DNA of 64,000 bases. It comes from Devosia sp. CN2-171 (GTDB lineage Bacteria; Pseudomonadota; Alphaproteobacteria; Rhizobiales; Devosiaceae). The notes beneath the pieces are model-generated. The model did no database searches. It was not told where the DNA came from and worked only from the letters and a program-made list of their open reading frames with translations. Positions 4,439 to 52,158 of the stretch are shown in pieces. Numbering within the stretch: the stretch's first letter is position 1; every line of letters begins with the position of its first letter. The position numbers and the translations under genes are program-made. The stretch is from the NCBI RefSeq assembly GCF_049354815.1, contig NZ_CP186479.1, positions 2,997,419 through 3,061,418 of the forward strand. The letters are read 5' to 3'.

Positions 4439-4454
4439 GGTTTCACGTGAATCA
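4439..4454. promoter_or_regulatory. parS-like site GGTTTCACGTGAATCA (14/16 to TGTTNCACGTGAAACA)
   Basis: Read directly. Divergent intergenic region, OMP/esterase. Confidence 0.7.
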
Positions 4455-32969: not shown

Positions 32970-33041
32970 CGTGATGGAGGGATTCGAACCCTCTACAGTC
33001 AGATTACAAATCTGATGCTCTTACCCAATGAGCTACATCCA
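32970..33041 (-). tRNA. tRNA-like gene, closest to tRNA-Thr(TGT); D-, anticodon- and T-arms canonical but the acceptor stem pairs only 4/7 as read
   Basis: The reverse complement gives TA-GCTC-ATTGGGTAA-GAGC, an anticodon arm TCAGA-TTTGTAA-TCTGA and a T-arm GAGGG-TTCGAAT-CCCTC. The 5' acceptor ATGGATG does not pair fully with the 3' CATCACG. An alternative reading of the loop gives a GTA anticodon. Confidence 0.5.
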
Positions 33042-33114
33042 TGGAGCACACAGCAGGGATCGAACCCGCGACCTCCGGATCATCTCCGGCGCTCTGCCAC
33101 TGAGCTAGGTGCGC
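33042..33114 (-). tRNA. tRNA-like gene with CCA and a non-canonical shortened anticodon arm (CCGG-AGATGAT-CCGG or CCGGA-GATGA-TCCGG); possibly a pseudogene
   Basis: Canonical D-arm (GCTC-AGTGGCA-GAGC), T-arm (GCGGG-TTCGATC-CCTGC) and acceptor (6/7 pairs). The anticodon arm is 1-2 nt short and position 33 is not U. It directly abuts the downstream tRNA-like gene. Confidence 0.4.
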
Positions 33115-39080: not shown

Positions 39081-39794
39081 CTACTCCGCCGCCACCGAAA
39101 CTTCCGAGTACTTCACCCAGATCGCCTCGGCGCCCAGTGTGCCGACCAGCACGGCATGCGCCTTGAGCTCGGCATCGCTGAGCCGCGGTGCCAGCGGTAG
39201 CGGCCGCCGCCGGGCCGGTGCAAAGACGATCGGTCCACCGCCGGCTTCTGTGCGCGTATCGGAGCCCAGCGACAGCGCCACCTGTCGCCCACCGATCAGT
39301 TCGAGGTAAACGTCGGCGAGGATCTCGCTGTCGAGCAGCGCGCCGTGCAGCGTGCGCTTGGAATTATCGATGCCATAGTGCTTGCAGAGTGCATCGAGGC
39401 TGACGCGCGCGCCGGGGTGGCGCTGGCGCGCCACCATCACGGTATCGATCACCTGGTTGGAAAGCCGGGGCTTCCGCAGCCGCTCGAGCTCGAAATTCAG
39501 AAAACCGATATCGAAATCGGCATTGTGGATGACCAGCGTCGCGTCCCCGATGAACTCGAGGAAGTTATCCGCTTCGGCGGCGAAGAGCGCCTTGTCGCGC
39601 AGGAATTCGGTCGAGAGCCCATGGACGCGGAACGCCTCGTCGGGCACGTCGCGCTCAGGGTTGAGGTAGACGTGGAAATTGCGCCCGGTCGGGATGTGGT
39701 TCAGCAGCTCGACGCAGCCGATCTCGACCACCCGGTCGCCGCTCTGGTGCGAGAGGCCGGTGGTTTCGGTATCGAGCACGATTTCGCGAGTCAT
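39081..39794 (-). CDS. dnaQ: DNA polymerase III epsilon subunit (3'-5' proofreading exonuclease)
   Basis: Exo I DTETTG, Exo II HNADFD, Exo III HGALLDSEILADVY. Confidence 0.92.
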   Translation of the reverse strand: MTREIVLDTETTGLSHQSGDRVVEIGCVELLNHIPTGRNFHVYLNPERDVPDEAFRVHGLSTEFLRDKALFAAEADNFLEFIGDATLVIHNADFDIGFLNFELERLRKPRLSNQVIDTVMVARQRHPGARVSLDALCKHYGIDNSKRTLHGALLDSEILADVYLELIGGRQVALSLGSDTRTEAGGGPIVFAPARRRPLPLAPRLSDAELKAHAVLVGTLGAEAIWVKYSEVSVAAE

Positions 39795-40387
39795 GTGCGG
39801 GTTTTGGTCCTGAGCCGTTGCACCAGTCGGCGCACCTCGTCGCGCGTCGCCTCGATGGTGCCGGAAGTGTCGAATATGTAGGTGGCGCGCTTGATCTTTT
39901 CAGCCTGCGGCATCTGCCGAGCAAGGATCGCTTCCAGCTTATCCACCGTCATGCCCGGCCGTGCCAGCGCCCGCCGCCGCTGTTCAGTCGCGTCAACGGT
40001 CGTGACGATCACGCCATCAAGGCCCCAATCGACCCCGTTCTCGAACAGCAGCGGGATATCGACCACGGCGATCGCATCACCGGCCGCCTCGGCGTCGGCG
40101 AGGAACTGTTTGATCCCCGCCCGCACCAGCGGATGAACGATGGCCTCGAGCTCTTTGATCCGCTCGGGATGGCCGACCACCTGTCCGCTAAGCCGCTGTC
40201 GGTCGATCGCGCCGTCCACCGTCACGCCTGGGAACGCCGCCTCGACCGGCTCGACGGCCGCTCCGCGATAAAGCTCGTGCACATAGTCGTCGGACGAAAA
40301 GGTCGGCACGCCCAGCTCGGCAAAGGCCTTCAGCACCGTCGATTTGCCGGTCGCGATCGAGCCGGTAAGGCCGAGCTTGGTGGTCAC
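39791..40387 (-). CDS. coaE: dephospho-CoA kinase
   Basis: P-loop GLTGSIATGKST. About 198 aa. Confidence 0.9.
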   Translation of the reverse strand: MTTKLGLTGSIATGKSTVLKAFAELGVPTFSSDDYVHELYRGAAVEPVEAAFPGVTVDGAIDRQRLSGQVVGHPERIKELEAIVHPLVRAGIKQFLADAEAAGDAIAVVDIPLLFENGVDWGLDGVIVTTVDATEQRRRALARPGMTVDKLEAILARQMPQAEKIKRATYIFDTSGTIEATRDEVRRLVQRLRTKTRT

Positions 40388-41217
40388 AGCGTCGCCTCCA
40401 CCTTCTGGCGCAGCTCCGCCGTCACCTCCGGCCGCACCCCGAACCAGGCCTCGAAGCCGGGAACCGCCTGGTGCAGCAGCATGCCAAGCCCGTCGACGGT
40501 GCGAACCCCGACGGCTCGTGCATCGGCGAGAAGCGGCGTCATCAGAGGCACGTAGACGATATCGGTCACCAGCGCCGTCTCAGGCAGCAGGCCGAGGTCG
40601 AGATCGTCGAAGCGGGACTCGTGCATGCCGATCGAGGTGGTATTGACCAGGAGGTCGGCGCCACCGGCATAGAAGGCGAAGTCGCTAAGCCGGCCCGGCG
40701 TGAAGGGGCCGTCGATCTCCCGCGCCAGTGCCTCGGCCTTTTCGGGCGTGCGATTGAGCAGCACGATTTCCTTGAACCCCCGTTCGCGCAGGGCGACGAG
40801 GATGGCCCGGGCCGCGCCGCCGGCGCCGAGGACGATGGCTCGACCCAGCCGTACGCTCCAGCCTGGGGCGTTCTGGTCGAGATTGCCGAGAAAGCCCATG
40901 TAGTCGGTGTTGAAGCCGCGGATGCGGCCGCCTTCTTCACGCACCAGCGTATTCACCGCACCGATCGTTTCGGCCAGCGGGTCGATGCTGTCGCAGAGGC
41001 GGAACACCTCCTCCTTGTGGGGAATGGTCACATTGCCGCCGACAAACTCGCCGGCCCGTACGCGCCCAACGAACCCGGCCAGATCGTCCGGCGCCACATC
41101 TATGGCGTCATAACTTCCGGCAATTGCGTGCTCGGCCAGCCAGGTGCCGTGGATCAGCGGCGAGCGCGAGTGCCTTATGGGATGGCCGATGACGAAGGCT
41201 TTTTTCACGTGAATCAT
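40384..41217 (-). CDS. aroE: shikimate dehydrogenase
   Basis: GAGGAARAI Rossmann motif and an NRT motif. The start codon is embedded in a parS site. Confidence 0.9.
   Translation of the reverse strand: MIHVKKAFVIGHPIRHSRSPLIHGTWLAEHAIAGSYDAIDVAPDDLAGFVGRVRAGEFVGGNVTIPHKEEVFRLCDSIDPLAETIGAVNTLVREEGGRIRGFNTDYMGFLGNLDQNAPGWSVRLGRAIVLGAGGAARAILVALRERGFKEIVLLNRTPEKAEALAREIDGPFTPGRLSDFAFYAGGADLLVNTTSIGMHESRFDDLDLGLLPETALVTDIVYVPLMTPLLADARAVGVRTVDGLGMLLHQAVPGFEAWFGVRPEVTAELRQKVEATL
41201..41216. promoter_or_regulatory. parS-like site TTTTTCACGTGAATCA (14/16), overlapping the aroE start codon
   Basis: Read directly. Encodes MIHVK at the aroE N-terminus. Confidence 0.65.
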
Positions 41218-41835
41218 TTTCCGAAAACGTCGGGGGCATGGAGCCGCAAGGCACCAAGCAAAGGCAAGAGTGGCAGCCCAAGGATGGTGAAATAGTCGCC
41301 TTCGACCCGTTCGAACAGGCGGATGGACGGACCTTCAAGCCGATAGCCGCCCACCGATCCGAGTACCGCTTCACCTTCCAGCGCCAGAATCTCGTCCCGT
41401 TCGGACGGCGAGAAGTCCCGCATGGTCAACCTTGCTGTCTCGACTACCGACCACAATACCGTGCCGTTTCGAGCCAGTGCGACGCCGGAATGCAGGTGAT
41501 GTGTCCGGCCACGAAGACGATCGAGCTGTCGGGCCGCTTCTCTCAGATCGACCGGTTTGTGCAGGATACTGGCCGCCAATTCCGGGCGGGGGCCGTCCGC
41601 CTCAGCCAGCACCTGATCCGCCCCGATCACCACTCCCTCCGGCCGAGTCGCCGAAACCGTCAACGCCTTCGCCTCAGCCAGCCGACGGGCGACGGCGACC
41701 GCATCGCCACCTTTCCCCAGCACTTCGGCTTCCACTGCCCGTTCGTCGATTTCCGCTGGACTCGCCTCGAATCGGAGCCCGACCCCCGCCAACAGGGCGT
41801 TTCGCGCGGCACTCTTTGAAGCAAGGATCAGCATG
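41214..41835 (-). CDS. maf: Maf-like nucleoside triphosphate pyrophosphatase
   Basis: MLILASKSAARNALL... typical Maf N-terminus. The longer upstream extension (to 41942) is possible. Confidence 0.78.
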
Positions 41836-41879
41836 CCCGGGGTTTTCCACATTGTGCTTGCTGGCTCAAGTTGGCCCTC

Positions 41880-41888
41880 GGTGGATAA
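41880..41888 (-). promoter_or_regulatory. DnaA box-like 9-mer TTATCCACC (8/9 to TTATCCACA)
   Basis: Read directly. Confidence 0.5.
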
Positions 41889-41963
41889 CCAACCCGGCAC
41901 GGCGTCATCCCAACTTGTCCCCGCTCGGACGAAATCCATCAACAGGCGGCGGCGTGCAGATCG

Positions 41964-41978
41964 TTAACAGACCGTTAA
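41964..41978. promoter_or_regulatory. CtrA box TTAACAGACCGTTAA (TTAA-N7-TTAA)
   Basis: Read directly. Confidence 0.6.
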
Positions 41979-42061
41979 GGTGAGTTCCGGGGAAAACCCA
42001 TTGCGTATGCCGAGCCGTCGTCCACACACTCGTTAAGACTTTCTCAACCACTATGGCATGG

Positions 42062-42076
42062 TTAACGCCCCGTTAA
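42062..42076. promoter_or_regulatory. CtrA box TTAACGCCCCGTTAA (TTAA-N7-TTAA)
   Basis: Read directly. Confidence 0.6.
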
Positions 42077-42175
42077 TCCCGGTGACTCCCGCTCCTGTCC
42101 ACGGGCTCCACCGGCGCAGTTTGCACAGGCATCGCGAGCCACCCTGCCGCGCGCTTCTGTCGCCGCGATCCGCGT

Positions 42176-42184
42176 TGTGGAGAA
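42176..42184 (-). promoter_or_regulatory. DnaA box-like 9-mer TTCTCCACA (8/9)
   Basis: Read directly. Confidence 0.45.
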
Positions 42185-42209
42185 GGGTGAATTCCTGCAA
42201 AACACCGCC

Positions 42210-42248
42210 ATGATAATACAAATGAAGAATCTAGATTCTTTTGGTTGG
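42210..42248. promoter_or_regulatory. AT-rich stretch (candidate DNA-unwinding element and hemE promoter) with two GANTC sites
   Basis: TGATAATACAAATGAAGAATCTAGATTCTTTTGGTTGG is far below the local GC content. Confidence 0.5.
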
Positions 42249-42262
42249 AAGGGACGGCAGCC

Positions 42263-43294
42263 GTGAACCCGGTGCTAAAACCCCTTCTCGAGACGGTTCG
42301 TGGCAAACGCCAGGACCGGCTCCCCATCTGGATCATGCGGCAAGCCGGACGCTACCTGCCGGAGTACCGCGAGCTGCGCGCCAGGGCCGGCAGCTTCCTC
42401 GATCTTTGCTACACCCCGGAACTGGCTGCCGAAGTAACGCTCCAGCCGCTGCGGCGCTTCGATCTCGATGCGGCGATCCTCTTTTCCGATATTCTCGTCA
42501 TTCCCGATGCGCTCGGCCAGACCGTGCGCTTCGAAGTGGGCGAAGGACCACAGCTCGAGCCCATCACCGCCATGACGCTCGATCGGCTCGATCCCGAAAC
42601 GGCTCTGGAGAAGCTGAACCCGATCATCGAGACTGTTCGCCGGGTACGTGCTGGTCTCAGTCCAGACAAGACCCTGATCGGCTTCTGCGGCTCCCCCTGG
42701 ACCGTTGCCACCTACATGATCGGCGGTCGCGGCTCCTCCGACCAGGCTGCGGCGCGTGTCTTTGCGCTGACCCAGCCGGTCGCCTTTGCCCGGCTCATCG
42801 ACATCCTCGTCGATACGAGCGTCGAATACCTGGCGGCCCAGTTCCGCGCCGGCGCCGATGTGGTGCAGCTGTTCGAGAGCTGGGCGATGAACCTTGACGA
42901 AGTCGCTTTCGACAGATGGGTGATCGAACCGAACCGGCGGATCGTCGAGGGCCTGCGCCGGGAAATCCCCGATGCGCCGGTCATCGGTTTTCCGCGCGGT
43001 GCAGCCGGGAACCTGCCGGCCTATGCCGCGCGGACCAAAGTTAACCTCCTCGGCCTCGATTACGGCACGCCCCTCGCCTTCGCGCAAAACCTGCCAGCCG
43101 GTCTCGGCGTCCAGGGCAATCTCGATCCGCTGCGGCTATTGGCGGGCGGCGAACAGATGGACGATCGCATCCGGCAGATCGTTGCCGGCTTCCGTGACCG
43201 GCCGCACATCTTCAACCTCGGCCACGGCATCGTGCCGGAAACGCCGATCGCACATGTCGAGCGCCTGATCGAAGTGGCGCGTGGAGCTTTTTGA
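42263..43294 (+). CDS. hemE: uroporphyrinogen decarboxylase
   Basis: PIWIMRQAGRYLPEY signature. GTG start at 42263 preferred over TTG at 42245. Confidence 0.9.
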   Translation: MNPVLKPLLETVRGKRQDRLPIWIMRQAGRYLPEYRELRARAGSFLDLCYTPELAAEVTLQPLRRFDLDAAILFSDILVIPDALGQTVRFEVGEGPQLEPITAMTLDRLDPETALEKLNPIIETVRRVRAGLSPDKTLIGFCGSPWTVATYMIGGRGSSDQAAARVFALTQPVAFARLIDILVDTSVEYLAAQFRAGADVVQLFESWAMNLDEVAFDRWVIEPNRRIVEGLRREIPDAPVIGFPRGAAGNLPAYAARTKVNLLGLDYGTPLAFAQNLPAGLGVQGNLDPLRLLAGGEQMDDRIRQIVAGFRDRPHIFNLGHGIVPETPIAHVERLIEVARGAF

Positions 43295-43295
43295 G

Positions 43296-43721
43296 ATGGA
43301 ATGGGTCAAGGCGCTGCATATCCTGAGCGTCATCGCCTGGATGGCGGGGATGCTCTATCTGCCGCGGCTCTTCGTCTATCACGCCGATGCCGAGAAGGGT
43401 GGCGTGCAGTCCGAGACGTTCAAGGTGATGGAGCGCCGCCTTTATCGCGGCATCACCACGCCGGCGATGATCGCCGCCTGGATCTTTGGCCTGTGGCTTG
43501 CCTTCGGCTTCGGCCTGGTCGATTTCAGTCAGGGCTGGATGTGGCTCAAGGCGCTGATGGTGCTGATCCTCAGTGGCATTCACGGCTATTACGGCCGGAT
43601 ACTCCGCGATTTCGCCCACGACCGGAACACGCGCTCGTCAAAATTCTTCCGGGCGATCAACGAAATCCCCTTCGTCATCGCCATCGTCATCGTCATCTCG
43701 GTGGTGGTGAAGCCGTTCTAG
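43296..43721 (+). CDS. hemJ: protoporphyrinogen IX oxidase HemJ (UPF0093 membrane protein)
   Basis: WVKALHILSVIAWMAGMLYLPRLFVYH... HemJ family. Adjacent to hemE. Confidence 0.8.
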   Translation: MEWVKALHILSVIAWMAGMLYLPRLFVYHADAEKGGVQSETFKVMERRLYRGITTPAMIAAWIFGLWLAFGFGLVDFSQGWMWLKALMVLILSGIHGYYGRILRDFAHDRNTRSSKFFRAINEIPFVIAIVIVISVVVKPF

Positions 43722-45291: not shown

Positions 45292-46617
45292 ATGCGTAGC
45301 GATGACACCATCGTCGCCCTGTCCTCAGGCTCCGTTCCCTCGGGCGTCGCCATCATCCGGTTCTCGGGCCCGGCAGCCGGTCGGGTTCTAATCGAGATGC
45401 TCGGCGCCCTCCCCGAACCCCGACGCCTGACCCTTGCCGACATCCGCCTCGACGGCGAAACTCTCGATCGAGGCCTCATCGCCTGGATGCCCGGCCCCAA
45501 CAGCTTCACCGGCGAAGATTGCGCCGAACTCCAGGTGCACGGCTCGCCGGCCGTCGTCCGCGTAATCCTTCGCCGGCTCAGCTCACAATCTGGCATCAGG
45601 CTGGCCGAAGCCGGGGAATTCACCCGCCGCGCTTTCGAGAACGGCAAGCTCGATCTCGTCGAAGCCCAGGGCCTCGGGGATCTGATCGAGGCCGAAACCG
45701 AGAATCAGCGCGCCCTGGCCTATTCGCGCATGGAGGGTGGGCTGACCCGGCAGGTCGAAGGCTGGCGCGAGCGCCTGCTGGATCTCCGTGCCGAGATCGA
45801 AGCACAGCTCGATTTCTCTGACGAAGGCGACGTCGGTGCGCTTCCCGATACTTTTGCCGCCGAGGTTGAGGCGCTGAATGACGATATTGGCGACGTGCTG
45901 GCGACGCGCGGCCAGGGCCGAATCCTGCGGAGCGGCTTTCGTGTTGTGCTCGCGGGTCCGCCGAACGCCGGCAAGTCGAGCCTGCTTAATGCCCTGTCTC
46001 GTTCAGAGGTGGCCATCGTCTCCGATGAGCCGGGCACCACGCGCGACCTCAAGGAAGCACCGCTCGACGTCCACGGCCAACTCATCATCCTGATCGATAG
46101 CGCCGGCCTGAGGGATACGAGTTCGAAAGCCGAAGCGATCGGTGTCGAACGGGCGAAGCAGGCGATGATCGGAGCAGATCAGGTGCTTTGGCTACAGGCC
46201 CCGGATATCGCGGCGGTCCTCCCACCGATTTTTCCCGAGTTCGACACAGAGCCCTGGCGACGCCCGCCGATCATGATTGTCGGCACGAAGGCCGATATCG
46301 GGTTGGTAGAAGGTGCGCACCTGTCCGTTTCCGTCACAACCGGGGAAGGCATAGAGGCACTGCTGGACAAGCTCTACGAAGTATCAGGAGCTGGCTCCGT
46401 TCAGGCCTCGGAGCTGCTGGTGAGCCACGAGCGGGATCGCGAGGCCCTGCTGGGGGCTGTCATGGCGCTGGCGCGAGTTTCGGAACAGTTGGACAATCCA
46501 GAACTGGCTGCTGAGGAGTTGCGGGCCGCGTCCTATGCGCTCGAGCGACTGCTTGGCCGCATGGATGCGGAGTCGGTGCTCGACCGTCTGTTCAGCGCCT
46601 TTTGCATCGGCAAGTGA
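45292..46617 (+). CDS. mnmE: tRNA modification GTPase MnmE (TrmE)
   Basis: G-domain GPPNAGKSSLLN, DEPGTTRD and a C-terminal CIGK motif. The stop codon is part of a parS site. Confidence 0.93.
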   Translation: MRSDDTIVALSSGSVPSGVAIIRFSGPAAGRVLIEMLGALPEPRRLTLADIRLDGETLDRGLIAWMPGPNSFTGEDCAELQVHGSPAVVRVILRRLSSQSGIRLAEAGEFTRRAFENGKLDLVEAQGLGDLIEAETENQRALAYSRMEGGLTRQVEGWRERLLDLRAEIEAQLDFSDEGDVGALPDTFAAEVEALNDDIGDVLATRGQGRILRSGFRVVLAGPPNAGKSSLLNALSRSEVAIVSDEPGTTRDLKEAPLDVHGQLIILIDSAGLRDTSSKAEAIGVERAKQAMIGADQVLWLQAPDIAAVLPPIFPEFDTEPWRRPPIMIVGTKADIGLVEGAHLSVSVTTGEGIEALLDKLYEVSGAGSVQASELLVSHERDREALLGAVMALARVSEQLDNPELAAEELRAASYALERLLGRMDAESVLDRLFSAFCIGK

Positions 46618-46630
46618 TTCACGTGAAACG
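46615..46630. promoter_or_regulatory. parS-like site TGATTCACGTGAAACG (14/16), contains the mnmE stop codon
   Basis: Read directly. Confidence 0.7.
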
Positions 46631-46686
46631 TCGGGTAGGCGCCATGAGAGCTGCACCCGCATGGCAGCCCGGCCGCCCCGCCCGGT

Positions 46687-46702
46687 TGATTCACGTGAAA
46701 CA
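46687..46702. promoter_or_regulatory. parS site TGATTCACGTGAAACA (15/16)
   Basis: In the mnmE-mnmG intergenic region. Confidence 0.75.
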
Positions 46703-46743
46703 GTGGCGTAGACCCCCCTTCCTCATCAAGGAAAGTTGGTTGG

Positions 46744-48606
46744 ATGAGCGATTTCGGCGTCATTGTCGTCGGCGGTGGTCACGCGGGGTCTGAAGCCGCG
46801 GCGGCATCCGCACGCCTCGGTGTTCCCACGGCGCTGATCACCCACAAGTTCGCCACCATCGGCGAGATGAGCTGCAATCCGGCCATCGGCGGGCTCGGCA
46901 AGGGCCATCTGGTGCGCGAGATCGACGCCATGGACGGGCTGATGGGCAGCGTTGCGGACGCCGCCGGCATCCAGTTTCGTGTCCTCAACCGCCGCAAGGG
47001 CCCGGCAGTGCGTGGTCCCCGCGCCCAGGCCGATCGCAAGCTCTACAAGGCGGCGATGCAGGCGGCCATCACCAGGCAGCCCAATCTCACCGTCATCGAA
47101 GGCGAGGTTGACGACCTGATCGTCGAGAATGGCCGCATCGCCGGCGCCGTGCTGCTCGACGGGCGCCGGTTCGGCGCCAAGGCGGTCGTGCTTACCACCG
47201 GCACGTTTCTGCGCGGCCTCATCCACCGCGGCGAGGAGACCATCCCGGCCGGTCGCGTCGGCGAGAAGCCGGTGCTTGGGCTCTCCACCCGCCTCGAAGC
47301 GCTGGGTCTGCAGCTCGGCCGGCTGAAGACCGGGACGCCGGCGCGGCTCGACGCGACCTCCATCGACTTCTCCGGGCTCGAAGAACAGCAGGGCGACGAT
47401 CCACCGGAACCGTTCTCGGCATTGACGACCACAATCACCACGCCGCAGGTCAGCTGCTTCATCACCCGCACGACGGCCGAGACGCATCGCATCATAGCGG
47501 ACAATCTTCACCGCTCGGCCATGTATTCCGGCCGCATCAAGAGCCGCGGGCCGCGCTACTGCCCGTCGATCGAGGACAAGATCGTCCGCTTCGCCGATCG
47601 GGAGAGCCACCAGATCTTTCTCGAGCCGGAGGGGCTCGATGACCCGACGATCTATCCCAATGGGCTGTCCACCTCGCTGCCGGCAGAGGTCCAGGAGGCG
47701 TTCCTCAAGTCCATGCCGGGCCTCGAGAATGTCCGGATCATCCGCCCCGGCTATGCCATTGAGTACGACTACGTCGATCCGCGCGAACTGACCCCGACGC
47801 TCGAGCTGAAGCGCCTGCCTGGCCTCTATCTCGCCGGCCAGATCAACGGAACAACGGGCTATGAAGAGGCCGCGGCGCAGGGGCTTTACGCTGGTGCCAA
47901 TGCCGGCCTCACCACCAGGGGCGATGTTCCGCTGCGCCTGTCGCGCACCGAGAGCTATCTCGGCGTCATGGTCGACGACCTCGTGACTCGCGGCGTTTCC
48001 GAGCCTTACCGCATGTTCACTTCGCGCGCAGAGTTCCGGCTGCACCTCAGAAGTGACAATGCCGACCAGCGACTTACGCCGACGGCGGTGGCCGCGGGCC
48101 TCGTCGGCGATGAGCGGCGGGAGCGTTTCGAAGAGAAGCGTGCCGCTCTCACGAGCGGGCGGAAGCTGCTCGACACGTTGACGGTCTCTCCGACGACGGC
48201 ACGGAAGGCTGGTTTGGCGGTGAACGCCGACGGACAGCAGCGAAGCGCTTTCGAGCTGCTCTCCTATCCGGAGATGTCCGCTGAGCAACTGCTGCCCCTC
48301 TGGCCCGAGCTGGGCGGTGTGTCGCTGGCGATCATGGAGCAGCTGTCGATCGACGCGCAGTATGCGGTGTATCTCGACCGTCAGCAGGCCGATATCCTCG
48401 CGATGAAGCGGGACGAGAGTCGCGACATTCCGGGCTGGCTGGACTATTCGGCGCTGCCGGGCCTGTCGATGGAGCTGCGCCAGAAGCTTTCGGAGCGGCG
48501 TCCCGCCACAATTGCGCAGGCCCAGGCGATTGACGGGGTCACTCCAGCGGCGATCACACTGCTCCTGTCTGTGATCCGTCGGGGCAGCTTGCGCCAGGCG
48601 GTTTGA
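46744..48606 (+). CDS. mnmG: tRNA uridine 5-carboxymethylaminomethyl modification enzyme MnmG (GidA)
   Basis: FAD-binding [14 protein letters not shown] and a SCNPAIGG motif. 620 aa. Confidence 0.95.
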
Positions 48607-49250
48607 TGGACGCAATCGACCGGCTTTCGGAGCATTTTCATCGGCCCGCCACCCTGGTGCGCACCGATCTGGAATCGTTTGCCACGCTGCTGCGCAAATG
48701 GAACGCTGTGCAGAATCTTGTTTCACGTGAAACAGAGTCGGCGCTGTGGGACCGGCACATCGTCGATTCCGTCCAGATTCTGCCGCTGCTTCGCCGCTCC
48801 GATGAACGCTTTCTGGACATCGGTTCAGGTGGCGGACTGCCGGCGATTCCGCTGGCCATTGCGCTAAAGGGTGGCCCGGCGAAGTTCCAGCTGGTCGAGC
48901 CGATCACCAAGAAGGTCGCCTTCCTGCGCCAGGCCATCCGCGAATTCGGCCTCGCGGCACAGGTGCATGCCGGCCGCAGCGACGATTTTGATTCACGTGA
49001 AACATCGCCGGTCGAGTTTGACGTGATCACCTCCCGCGCCCTCGCGGCGCTGCCGATGCTGCTGGGACTTATCCACCCCTTCTTTGGCCCGGAAACCCGC
49101 GCAATCCTGCACAAGGGGCGAGACTACGCGCGCGAACTCGAAGAAAGCCGTTTGGCCTGGGACTTTGACGTGGTATTAACCGACAGCGCCACGGAAATGG
49201 GCGCCGTATTGCTGCAGATCAGCAATTTGCGAATAAAACCAGTTAGTTAG
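48603..49250 (+). CDS. rsmG: 16S rRNA (guanine527-N7)-methyltransferase RsmG (GidB)
   Basis: SAM-binding [15 protein letters not shown]. Contains two in-frame parS sites. Confidence 0.9.
48719..48734. promoter_or_regulatory. parS site TGTTTCACGTGAAACA (16/16, perfect palindrome), inside the rsmG CDS
   Basis: Read directly. Confidence 0.85.
48989..49004. promoter_or_regulatory. parS site TGATTCACGTGAAACA (15/16), inside the rsmG CDS
   Basis: Read directly. Confidence 0.8.
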
Positions 49251-51138: not shown

Positions 51139-52158
51139 CTAACGCTCTGCAGCCATTGTACAAATCGCCAGAAGCGCCCGGCGGCTGACCACATCCTGCA
51201 GTCCGTAGCGCTTCCGGCTGTCGGCCACCGCGAGCTGCAGACGCTCGAGCGCTGCGGAGAGCGCTTCGTCGGTCCAAAGCCGCAATTGCCGCTCCAGCGA
51301 CGAGCGCCGCGAAAAGTGCGGGCGGGGTCTGGCATTGTCGAGCACGGCGCCAGCCGACTTGCCGGCGTCGGACTCGCTGCGCCAGCGCCGGAGCGTTGCG
51401 AAGTGGTTCAGCGCGCTGGCAAGGATTTGCTGGGTGTTGACGCTTTGCGCCAGGGCCCGCTCCAGCGCCGTGTCGAGTTCGGCGGCATGGCCGCTGGCTG
51501 TGGCGTCGATGATCTGGTCGAGGACGAGGGCGGCGTTGTCGGCGCAGAGCAGGAGGACATCCTCCCGTGTCAGCACCTTGCTGTCGGCCGCATAGAGCAG
51601 CAGCTTTTCGAGCTCGCGCCGGGTGATTTCGCGGTCGTTGCCGAGCGTATCGCGCAGCGCCGCCACTGTATCCTGGTCGGCGCGGATGCCGGCCTTGGAG
51701 AAGGTCTCGGCAATCAGCCGGCCAAGTGATTCGTCGGTATCGGGGTAGCAGGGCAGGGCGCGGCCGAGCTTTGTCGTCTCGACCAAGGCGCGCAGGGGAT
51801 CCTTGGGCGTCAGATTGCCCGCCTCGAGGATGATCACCGAGCCGGGATCGTCGCGCAGCTCGGTCAGCGGCATGACCAAGGACTTGCCGGCGCCACGGAC
51901 GCGAATCACCCGGCGATCGCCGAACAGCGAGGTGGTCTTGGCCTCCACGGCGAGGCGCGAGGGATCGGCATCGAGTTCGGCGCAATCGAGCACGACGAGA
52001 TTCATGCTGTCGGCGTCGTTGCCGGCGAAGCGCCGGGCGAGACGCTGGGCGGTCTCGCGCACCAATCCGGCGTCAGGGCCGTAGGCGAGGATGATACCGG
52101 CCTCGAGATCGGGGCGGTCGACGAAGCGCTGCACTTCGTGCGCCTTGAGCGCAACCAT
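51139..52158 (-). CDS. holA: DNA polymerase III delta subunit
   Basis: 339 aa with the delta-subunit N-terminal pattern. Operonic with lptE-leuS, a conserved arrangement. Confidence 0.82.
   Translation of the reverse strand: MVALKAHEVQRFVDRPDLEAGIILAYGPDAGLVRETAQRLARRFAGNDADSMNLVVLDCAELDADPSRLAVEAKTTSLFGDRRVIRVRGAGKSLVMPLTELRDDPGSVIILEAGNLTPKDPLRALVETTKLGRALPCYPDTDESLGRLIAETFSKAGIRADQDTVAALRDTLGNDREITRRELEKLLLYAADSKVLTREDVLLLCADNAALVLDQIIDATASGHAAELDTALERALAQSVNTQQILASALNHFATLRRWRSESDAGKSAGAVLDNARPRPHFSRRSSLERQLRLWTDEALSAALERLQLAVADSRKRYGLQDVVSRRALLAICTMAAER

Follow-up and report, generated by a model that had tools for sequence, protein, structure and literature searches.

In Caulobacter, the chromosomal replication origin, Cori, has been mapped experimentally at hemE, and the passages of PMC6393856, PMC4285127 and PMC4468827 that deal with its architecture describe five CtrA sites, two G-boxes, five W-boxes, an IHF site and five GANTC motifs, together with an AT-rich region and hemE promoters. 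Both G-boxes lie near or overlap CtrA sites, according to the account of the origin in PMC4468827, and Cori overlaps the duf299 gene, according to that in PMC6393856. Here we describe a putative origin of this kind in Devosia sp. CN2-171. Within a 64,000-bp stretch of its chromosome (contig NZ_CP186479.1), referred to below as the window, the 428-bp gap between maf and hemE (window positions 41835-42262) is predicted to be the chromosomal replication origin (oriC) on the basis of its concentration of motifs, their conservation across 77 related sequences and an orientation-corrected skew switch. An earlier note, made from the letters of the window alone, had placed a Cori-like origin here; the location that it gave is supported, and its extent was one base short (427 bp, starting at 41836).

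Devosia belongs to the Hyphomicrobiales, an order with two studied origins, those of Sinorhizobium meliloti and of Brucella abortus chromosome I, which are likewise hemE-linked and share the maf...hemE synteny. In both organisms initiation is DnaA-dependent, and dnaA lies distant from the origin. Neither origin carries CtrA motifs or is bound by CtrA, as far as the relevant passages of PMC4433202, and those of PMC2877005 citing Bellefontaine et al. 2002, report. CtrA has been reported at other non-Caulobacter alphaproteobacterial origins, in orders different from that of Devosia: that of Rickettsia prowazekii, in a statement of PMC4468827 citing Brassinga 2002, and that of Hyphomonas neptunium, for which a section of PMC7200025 places a CtrA peak from chromatin immunoprecipitation sequencing (ChIP-seq) adjoining the origin. 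Among the papers that name Devosia together with CtrA, none deals with the origin.

The gap contains two perfect TTAA-N7-TTAA motifs, as the earlier note had stated. Box 1 (TTAACAGACCGTTAA, 41964-41978) and box 2 (TTAACGCCCCGTTAA, 42062-42076, within an element spanning 42058-42076) are the only such motifs in the window, for which dinucleotide shuffles predict 0.02, and when the gap itself was shuffled, 0 of 100,000 versions gave two boxes (P < 1e-5 for at least two). Five of the window's 22 TTAA tetramers fall in the gap. The 8-mer CtrA motif TTAACCAT has a single copy in the window, on the minus strand at 42058-42065, as the left-hand half of box 2. An additional half-site, GTTAAG at 42032-42037, had also been recognised (as TTAAG) and is kept as GTTAAC or GTTAAG across the subclade to which the window belongs. 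Box 1 ends 9 bp ahead of a DnaA-like box at 41988, and the half-site begins 5 bp past another at 42018; the two kinds of site are thus intermingled, an arrangement also seen in Cori.

Conservation was assessed using a signature of the AT-rich block that precedes hemE, TTGTGG-N9-AAT-N5-CNAAACACNGCYATRAWRAW, which is found in 7/7 Devosiaceae genome loci and in 0/73 others. This signature matched 87 metagenome stretches, which, once the window and the genome loci were added, yielded 81 full-length gaps; the 77 distinct Devosiaceae-type gaps among them are the family to which all counts below refer. Alignment of eight Devosiaceae gaps revealed motif-like conserved islands, the background between them being 60% identical. 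A full TTAA-N7-TTAA box occurs at least once in 74/77 gaps, and two or more times in 28/77. In total, 103 full boxes were found in the gaps, versus one in 575 kb of flanking sequence from the same contigs. The spacing is strict: pairs of TTAA separated by seven bases number 103, those at N6 number six, N0-N5 and N8-N11 are empty, and N12-N15 hold 15 in all. The extended consensus, gTTAAC-N5-cGTTAAc, agrees with the published CtrA motif.

Measured relative to the conserved TTGTGG, the boxes fall into a small number of slots. Slot A, at about -210, holds a full box in 24/77 gaps and corresponds to box 1 of the window; a middle slot at about -150 is filled in 9/77; slot B, at about -110 and corresponding to box 2, carries a full box in 55/77 and one with at most one mismatch in 74/77; and slot C, at about -52, is filled in 15/77 and is empty in the window. 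The half-sites of slot B have an information content of 8-9, which is near-maximal, with a free spacer between them. In a matched control, a full box was present in 8/73 non-Devosiaceae hemE-upstream regions. Across 80 hemE loci, covering ~650 kb, all 19 full boxes lie within 700 bp upstream of hemE, and few non-Devosiaceae loci carry one; the motif is therefore origin-specific and uneven among lineages.

The eight non-Devosiaceae loci with full boxes (L008, L013, L024, L028, L038, L041, L051 and L080) include two from Cohaesibacter, one of which has two boxes, one from Bartonella apis, one from a Beijerinckiaceae metagenome-assembled genome (MAG) and several from other MAGs. Their boxes are positioned 92-370 bp upstream of hemE, and no full box was found in these loci away from the hemE-upstream region. 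None was found upstream of hemE in the sampled loci of Mesorhizobium, Aminobacter, Brucella/Ochrobactrum, Sphingomonas and Erythrobacter, and few of the sampled Rhizobiaceae loci have one there. As a separate observation, a 2127-bp contig from a JGI metagenome (L117, Ga0247823_10108502) is 99.3% identical to window positions 41294-43420, with both CtrA boxes identical to those of the window; from this identity it follows that the same species was present in that metagenome sample.

DnaA-like boxes were scored by their mismatches to the consensus TTATCCACA. Eight sites with at most one mismatch occur in the window, and three of these lie in the gap, the maximum for any 430-bp segment. Four positions in the gap (41843, 41988, 42018 and 42176) have at most two mismatches in 64-97% of the family, versus 1.7% for a control averaged over 102 positions on both strands. 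The best-conserved element of the whole gap is TTTTCCACA (41843-41851, plus strand), which matches the consensus at 8/9 bases and stands 8 bp from the maf start codon; the same 9-mer is present in 69/77 sequences, 97% have at most two mismatches, and its information content is 8-9. At 41988-41996 on the minus strand, TTTTCCCCG is conserved at the same threshold in 65% of the family, and its GGGGA core has an information content of 9; the most frequent family form, TTATCCCCA, includes the Caulobacter W-box TCCCCA. The third, TCGTCCACA (42018-42026, plus strand), is kept in 77%, and the column-wise majority of the family at this position is TTATCCACA, the full consensus. The fourth, TTCTCCACA (42176-42184, minus strand), adjoins the AT-rich block; 64% of the family have at most two mismatches, the core TCCACAA is conserved, and TTGTGG is invariant in eight independently fetched Devosiaceae sequences.

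Other 9-mers in the gap are less constant. The closest match to the Escherichia coli consensus, TTATCCACC (41880-41888, minus strand), is unconserved, with at most one mismatch in just 3% of the family at that position, and CTGTCCACG (42096-42104, plus strand), which 5% retain at two mismatches or fewer, is likewise unconserved and probably a chance occurrence. Both belong to the four DnaA-like 9-mers of the earlier note, all of which exist; the better-conserved boxes at 41843 and 41988 had been missed. A weak, W-box-like TTGTCCCCG with a TCCCC core (41915-41923, plus strand) is kept in part of the family, and a further TTATTCACA is present near 42119 in most relatives and is degenerate in the window. 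Outside the gap, a second small cluster of DnaA-like sites is found in the dnaQ-coaE coding region, with four sites of at most two mismatches in 430 bp, including TCATCCACA and TTATCCACC at 39524-39532 and 39939-39947; this cluster may be a matter of chance.

Directly 5' of hemE lies a conserved AT-rich block (GAATTCCTGCAAAACACCGCCATGATAATACAAAT..., 42189-42249), noted earlier as a 40-bp AT-rich stretch. The lowest-GC (guanine plus cytosine) segments of 40, 60 and 100 bp in the entire 64 kb all map to 42181-42250, with a 40-bp minimum of 28% GC. The block is a candidate DNA-unwinding element, hemE promoter, or both. An Rfam search of 41000-43000 gave no match even at E <= 1.

GANTC motifs, of the type methylated by CcrM, are present at three places in the gap, as had been indicated: GACTC at 42084-42088, and two more, at 42227 and 42234, that together form the 12-bp palindrome GAATCTAGATTC (42227-42238), where relatives keep at least one GANTC. 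The window as a whole is 3-fold depleted in GANTC (108 sites versus 330 expected). Across the family the motif is 8-fold denser in the gaps than in the flanks (10.7 versus 1.36 per kb), and every gap has at least two. The densest GANTC cluster of the window is elsewhere, inside rsmG, where seven sites fall within 430 bp (48587-49016). The rsmG coding sequence also includes two parS sites, at 48719 and 48989, and its third-position GC of 0.70 is the lowest among the called genes.

The setting of the gap is that of a known type of origin. On its left, maf (41214-41834, minus strand; NCBIfam Maf-like match, 2.3e-62) heads the leftward cluster maf-aroE-coaE-dnaQ, and on its right, hemE (42263-43294, plus strand, with a GTG start at 42263; NCBIfam match, 1.3e-116) heads the rightward cluster hemE-hemJ-rho-mnmE-mnmG-rsmG-parA-parB. 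NCBIfam supports the identities of the minus-strand genes dnaQ, coaE, aroE and maf as well as those of the plus-strand cluster, in agreement with the gene order first proposed, and the order dnaQ-coaE-aroE-maf / hemE-...-parAB is the conserved alphaproteobacterial origin cluster. Beyond parB, holA and leuS (NCBIfam), with lptE between them (Pfam), are on the minus strand. The window is housekeeping chromosome, with dnaK, dnaJ, hslU, ftsK, rho and leuS present.

Among related hemE loci, maf is upstream of hemE in 75/80. The distance between the two genes is 430-480 bp in 7/7 Devosiaceae genome loci versus 1.1-1.6 kb in most other taxa, where the additional gene between them is the PF03618 kinase/pyrophosphorylase (duf299), seen in Mesorhizobium and Erythrobacter. 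No duf299 (PF03618) was found in the whole 64-kb window or in the other Devosiaceae gaps; the gene is a synteny marker and carries no functional requirement. HemE itself, 69-76% identical to its Devosia and Pelagibacterium counterparts and ~55% to HemE of other Hyphomicrobiales and of Sphingomonadales, places the organism in the Devosiaceae.

Strand composition was analysed with the orientation of genes taken into account. On coding strands, third codon positions are much richer in C than in G (coefficient -0.16), and when read on the plus strand, the third positions of plus-strand genes have a skew of -0.164 and those of minus-strand genes one of +0.163. Because C exceeds G at third positions, the local GC skew tracks gene orientation and not replication direction; raw GC skew was rejected as an origin locator since its third-position component is dominated by the coding strand. 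A model of gene-level third-position skew that combined gene orientation with a step placed the best breakpoints at 42.1-46.8 kb, with a residual sum of squares (RSS) of 396-404, versus 471 for a step at 51 kb and 538 for no step. The step is significant by permutation (P = 0.0045) and runs from negative on the left to positive on the right, which is the sign of an origin, and the maf-hemE boundary lies inside the support interval. Three other gaps in the 42-47 kb interval, hemJ-rho, rho-mnmE and mnmE-mnmG, were considered as origin candidates and rejected; they have parS sites, but no cluster of DnaA boxes and no AT-rich minimum. Gene-strand bias was too weak to serve as a marker, with 18/38 genes co-oriented on the left and 11/18 on the right.

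Sites resembling parS are strongly enriched. With up to three mismatches allowed there are 13 where 0.11 would be expected; they extend from 4.4 to 57.9 kb, and their median position is 43.7 kb. The earlier description of an array centred on the gap holds in that the sites flank it and their median is close by, but the four best sites (46615, 46687, 48719 and 48989, each with at most one mismatch, that at 48719 being perfect) form a core at 46615-49004, 4-7 kb to the right of the gap and upstream of parAB.

Set beside Cori, the Devosia gap is alike in adjoining hemE within the same gene cluster, with parS sites and parAB a few kilobases off, in placing several full TTAA-N7-TTAA sites among DnaA boxes of weak or moderate strength, and in its clustered GANTC motifs and an AT-rich region on the hemE side. 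It differs in having two full boxes and a half-site where Cori has five CtrA sites, in the absence of duf299 from the window, which leaves maf as the far flank, and in having no dnaA nearby. Of the Caulobacter-type hallmarks first proposed, the CtrA boxes, GANTC sites, AT-rich region and DnaA-box cluster hold. The gap also differs from the S. meliloti and Brucella origins, most family relatives of which retain duf299 between maf and hemE.

From the motifs, their conservation, the synteny, the AT-rich minimum and the corrected skew, we infer that replication starts in the gap and that CtrA and DnaA act on it as follows. DnaA would bind the weak to moderate boxes at 41843 (plus), 41988 (minus), 42018 (plus) and 42176 (minus), perhaps also those at 41880 and 41915, and would next open the AT-rich block at ~42190-42249 beside hemE. 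CtrA~P (phosphorylated CtrA) would occupy the boxes at 41964 and 42062 and the half-site at 42032, between or beside the central DnaA boxes. Where CtrA is active, it would impede the assembly of DnaA, and perhaps origin-proximal transcription, coupling initiation to the cell cycle by limiting it to cells without active CtrA. The clustered GANTC sites would offer a target for CcrM methylation, and the flanking parS sites, strongest 4-7 kb to the right ahead of parAB, would pass the duplicated origins to ParAB. We regard it as very probable that the gap is the chromosomal replication origin, and as likely that CtrA binds it; towards the proposition that this binding represses initiation we incline with more reserve. 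The reading as a whole, a hemE-linked, Cori-like oriC under CtrA control, as in the earlier note, that works by the mechanism outlined, has a good probability in our judgement and draws on synteny, motifs, family conservation and corrected skew.

Several findings weigh against this interpretation. Neither the Caulobacter G-box TGATCCACA nor the W-box TCCCCA occurs in exact form in the gap, where TCCCCG is found twice, and no match to the IHF consensus WATCAANNNNTTR with at most one mismatch was found in it; these absences set the gap apart from Cori. Box 2 does agree with the published Cori IHF site TAACGCTCTGTT at 10/12 positions, but 6/10 of these belong to the CtrA half-sites, and the family does not conserve the spacer. 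A basal unwinding system is characterised, in the portion of PMC8287927 that defines it, by a DnaA box with at most two mismatches located 0-16 bp from at least three NAN trinucleotides; by eye, no such (NAN)3 DnaA-trio run was seen to begin in the 16 bp following 42184 on the right, with the strand orientation uncertain. The genes ctrA, ccrM and dnaA are all outside the 64-kb window; neither dnaA nor dnaN is among the ~31 window open reading frames scanned, as had been said of both. The two studied Hyphomicrobiales origins are unbound by CtrA, so direct control is not what one would expect by default for a member of the order. Without correction, cumulative G-C reaches its lowest value at 51,295, 9 kb beyond the gap on its right-hand side, and the corrected skew test is a window-scale one, 64 kb being too short for a test on the scale of the chromosome. 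Finally, the CtrA boxes could serve the transcription of hemE or maf alone.

This last point can be developed into an explanation in which the region is the origin and its CtrA boxes are purely transcriptional operators of divergent hemE and maf-aroE-coaE-dnaQ promoters. In its favour, 130 bp separate box 1 from the start of maf and 187 bp separate box 2 from that of hemE; CtrA is chiefly a transcription factor, with ~100 target promoters; Caulobacter tolerates removal of the Cori CtrA sites in minimal medium; and in S. meliloti CtrA influences replication only indirectly. The boxes are, however, fixed in position relative to the conserved DnaA boxes and not to any recognisable promoter: scanning 41600-42500 for sigma-70 consensus promoters and intrinsic terminators revealed neither, and the conserved block, compared by eye, did not fit the Caulobacter or S. 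meliloti promoter consensus. The boxes also switch slots, yet at least one is always kept within the DnaA-box array, and just 5-9 bp separate slot A and the half-site from DnaA-like boxes. We therefore consider purely transcriptional operators unlikely; both roles coincide in Cori, and the two explanations are not fully separable. Another alternative, that the gap consists of CtrA- and DnaA-regulated divergent promoters and the origin is elsewhere, for example at parB-holA near 51 kb or outside the window, would accommodate the raw skew minimum, the absence of dnaA and dnaN from the window, and the skew of the 4 kb surrounding hemE in 57 relatives, which is noise without a signal. DnaA, too, is a transcription factor. 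The 51-kb minimum, however, arises because the plus-strand run from hemE to parB yields there to the minus-strand genes holA to leuS, and the corrected fit prefers 42.1-46.8 kb; this is also how the GC-skew check suggested with the original claim came out, within the window, the raw minimum disagreeing and the orientation-corrected switch agreeing. The parB-holA gap is without a DnaA box at one mismatch or fewer and is not AT-poor, and the parS array surrounds the maf-hemE gap. The Caulobacter origin at hemE belongs to the same gene cluster, and that of S. meliloti was reportedly mapped at hemE in this cluster as well. An origin elsewhere is accordingly very unlikely.

Least credible is the notion that some other protein, and not CtrA, recognises the TTAA-N7-TTAA motifs, or that they simply reflect the base composition of an AT-richer origin region. 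It can appeal to the location of ctrA beyond the window and to the composition of the gap (58% GC versus ~65% for the window), but the N7 spacing, with 103 cases where N6 has six and the N0-N5 and N8-N11 classes are empty, excludes a compositional effect, and the similarly AT-richer origin gaps of 73 other taxa are mostly without the motif. Moreover, gTTAAC-N5-cGTTAAc and the embedded TTAACCAT both agree with published CtrA motifs, and CtrA is present in most Alphaproteobacteria.

Returning to the CtrA-controlled origin, we are slightly inclined to extend direct CtrA control to the Devosiaceae as a whole, as a conserved trait in which selection would retain at least one full box amid turnover among three or four fixed slots that lie between the DnaA boxes. 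If this is true, CtrA-origin coupling in Alphaproteobacteria is either ancestral, with repeated loss, or was gained repeatedly. The kind of origin described here is already known; the novelty consists in the conservation of CtrA boxes at the predicted origin across a family of the Hyphomicrobiales, and in their turnover among fixed slots. A putative origin is thereby located for an unstudied family, with candidate sites at the base-pair level, and its 77 versions, with slots A, B and C occupied singly or in combination, provide a comparative series for the evolution of CtrA sites. As the studied Hyphomicrobiales models are without CtrA binding at the origin, a culturable Devosia would offer a contrast within the same order.

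Some further features of the window deserve mention. Ten of the 13 parS-like sites are an asymmetric, GANTC-containing 16-bp variant, TGATTCACGTGAAACA, at 4439, 19332, 26051, 31365, 41201, 43742, 46615, 46687, 48989 and 57917, and the perfect parS at 48719 has a GANTC on either side (GAATCT-parS-GAGTC). In 9/10 of the variants the GANTC half faces ~44-46 kb, with the flip between 43742 and 46615, and these orientations are kept in relatives (L001-L006 and L012). Across the 80 hemE loci, 65/82 parS-like sites bear a GANTC, as do 17/17 in Devosiaceae; a literature search found no paper tying chromosomal parS to GANTC.

Two aberrant, tandem tRNA-like sequences are situated on the minus strand in a low-GC patch at 32973-33114. 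That at 33045-33114 is called by ARAGORN as tRNA-His with anticodon ATG and has a 5-nt anticodon loop; in its neighbour at 32973-33039 (45% GC) the anticodon loop is GUA-like, and the match to the tRNA model covers only positions 4-67, leaving out the acceptor-stem ends. The pair may be remnants of an integration site.

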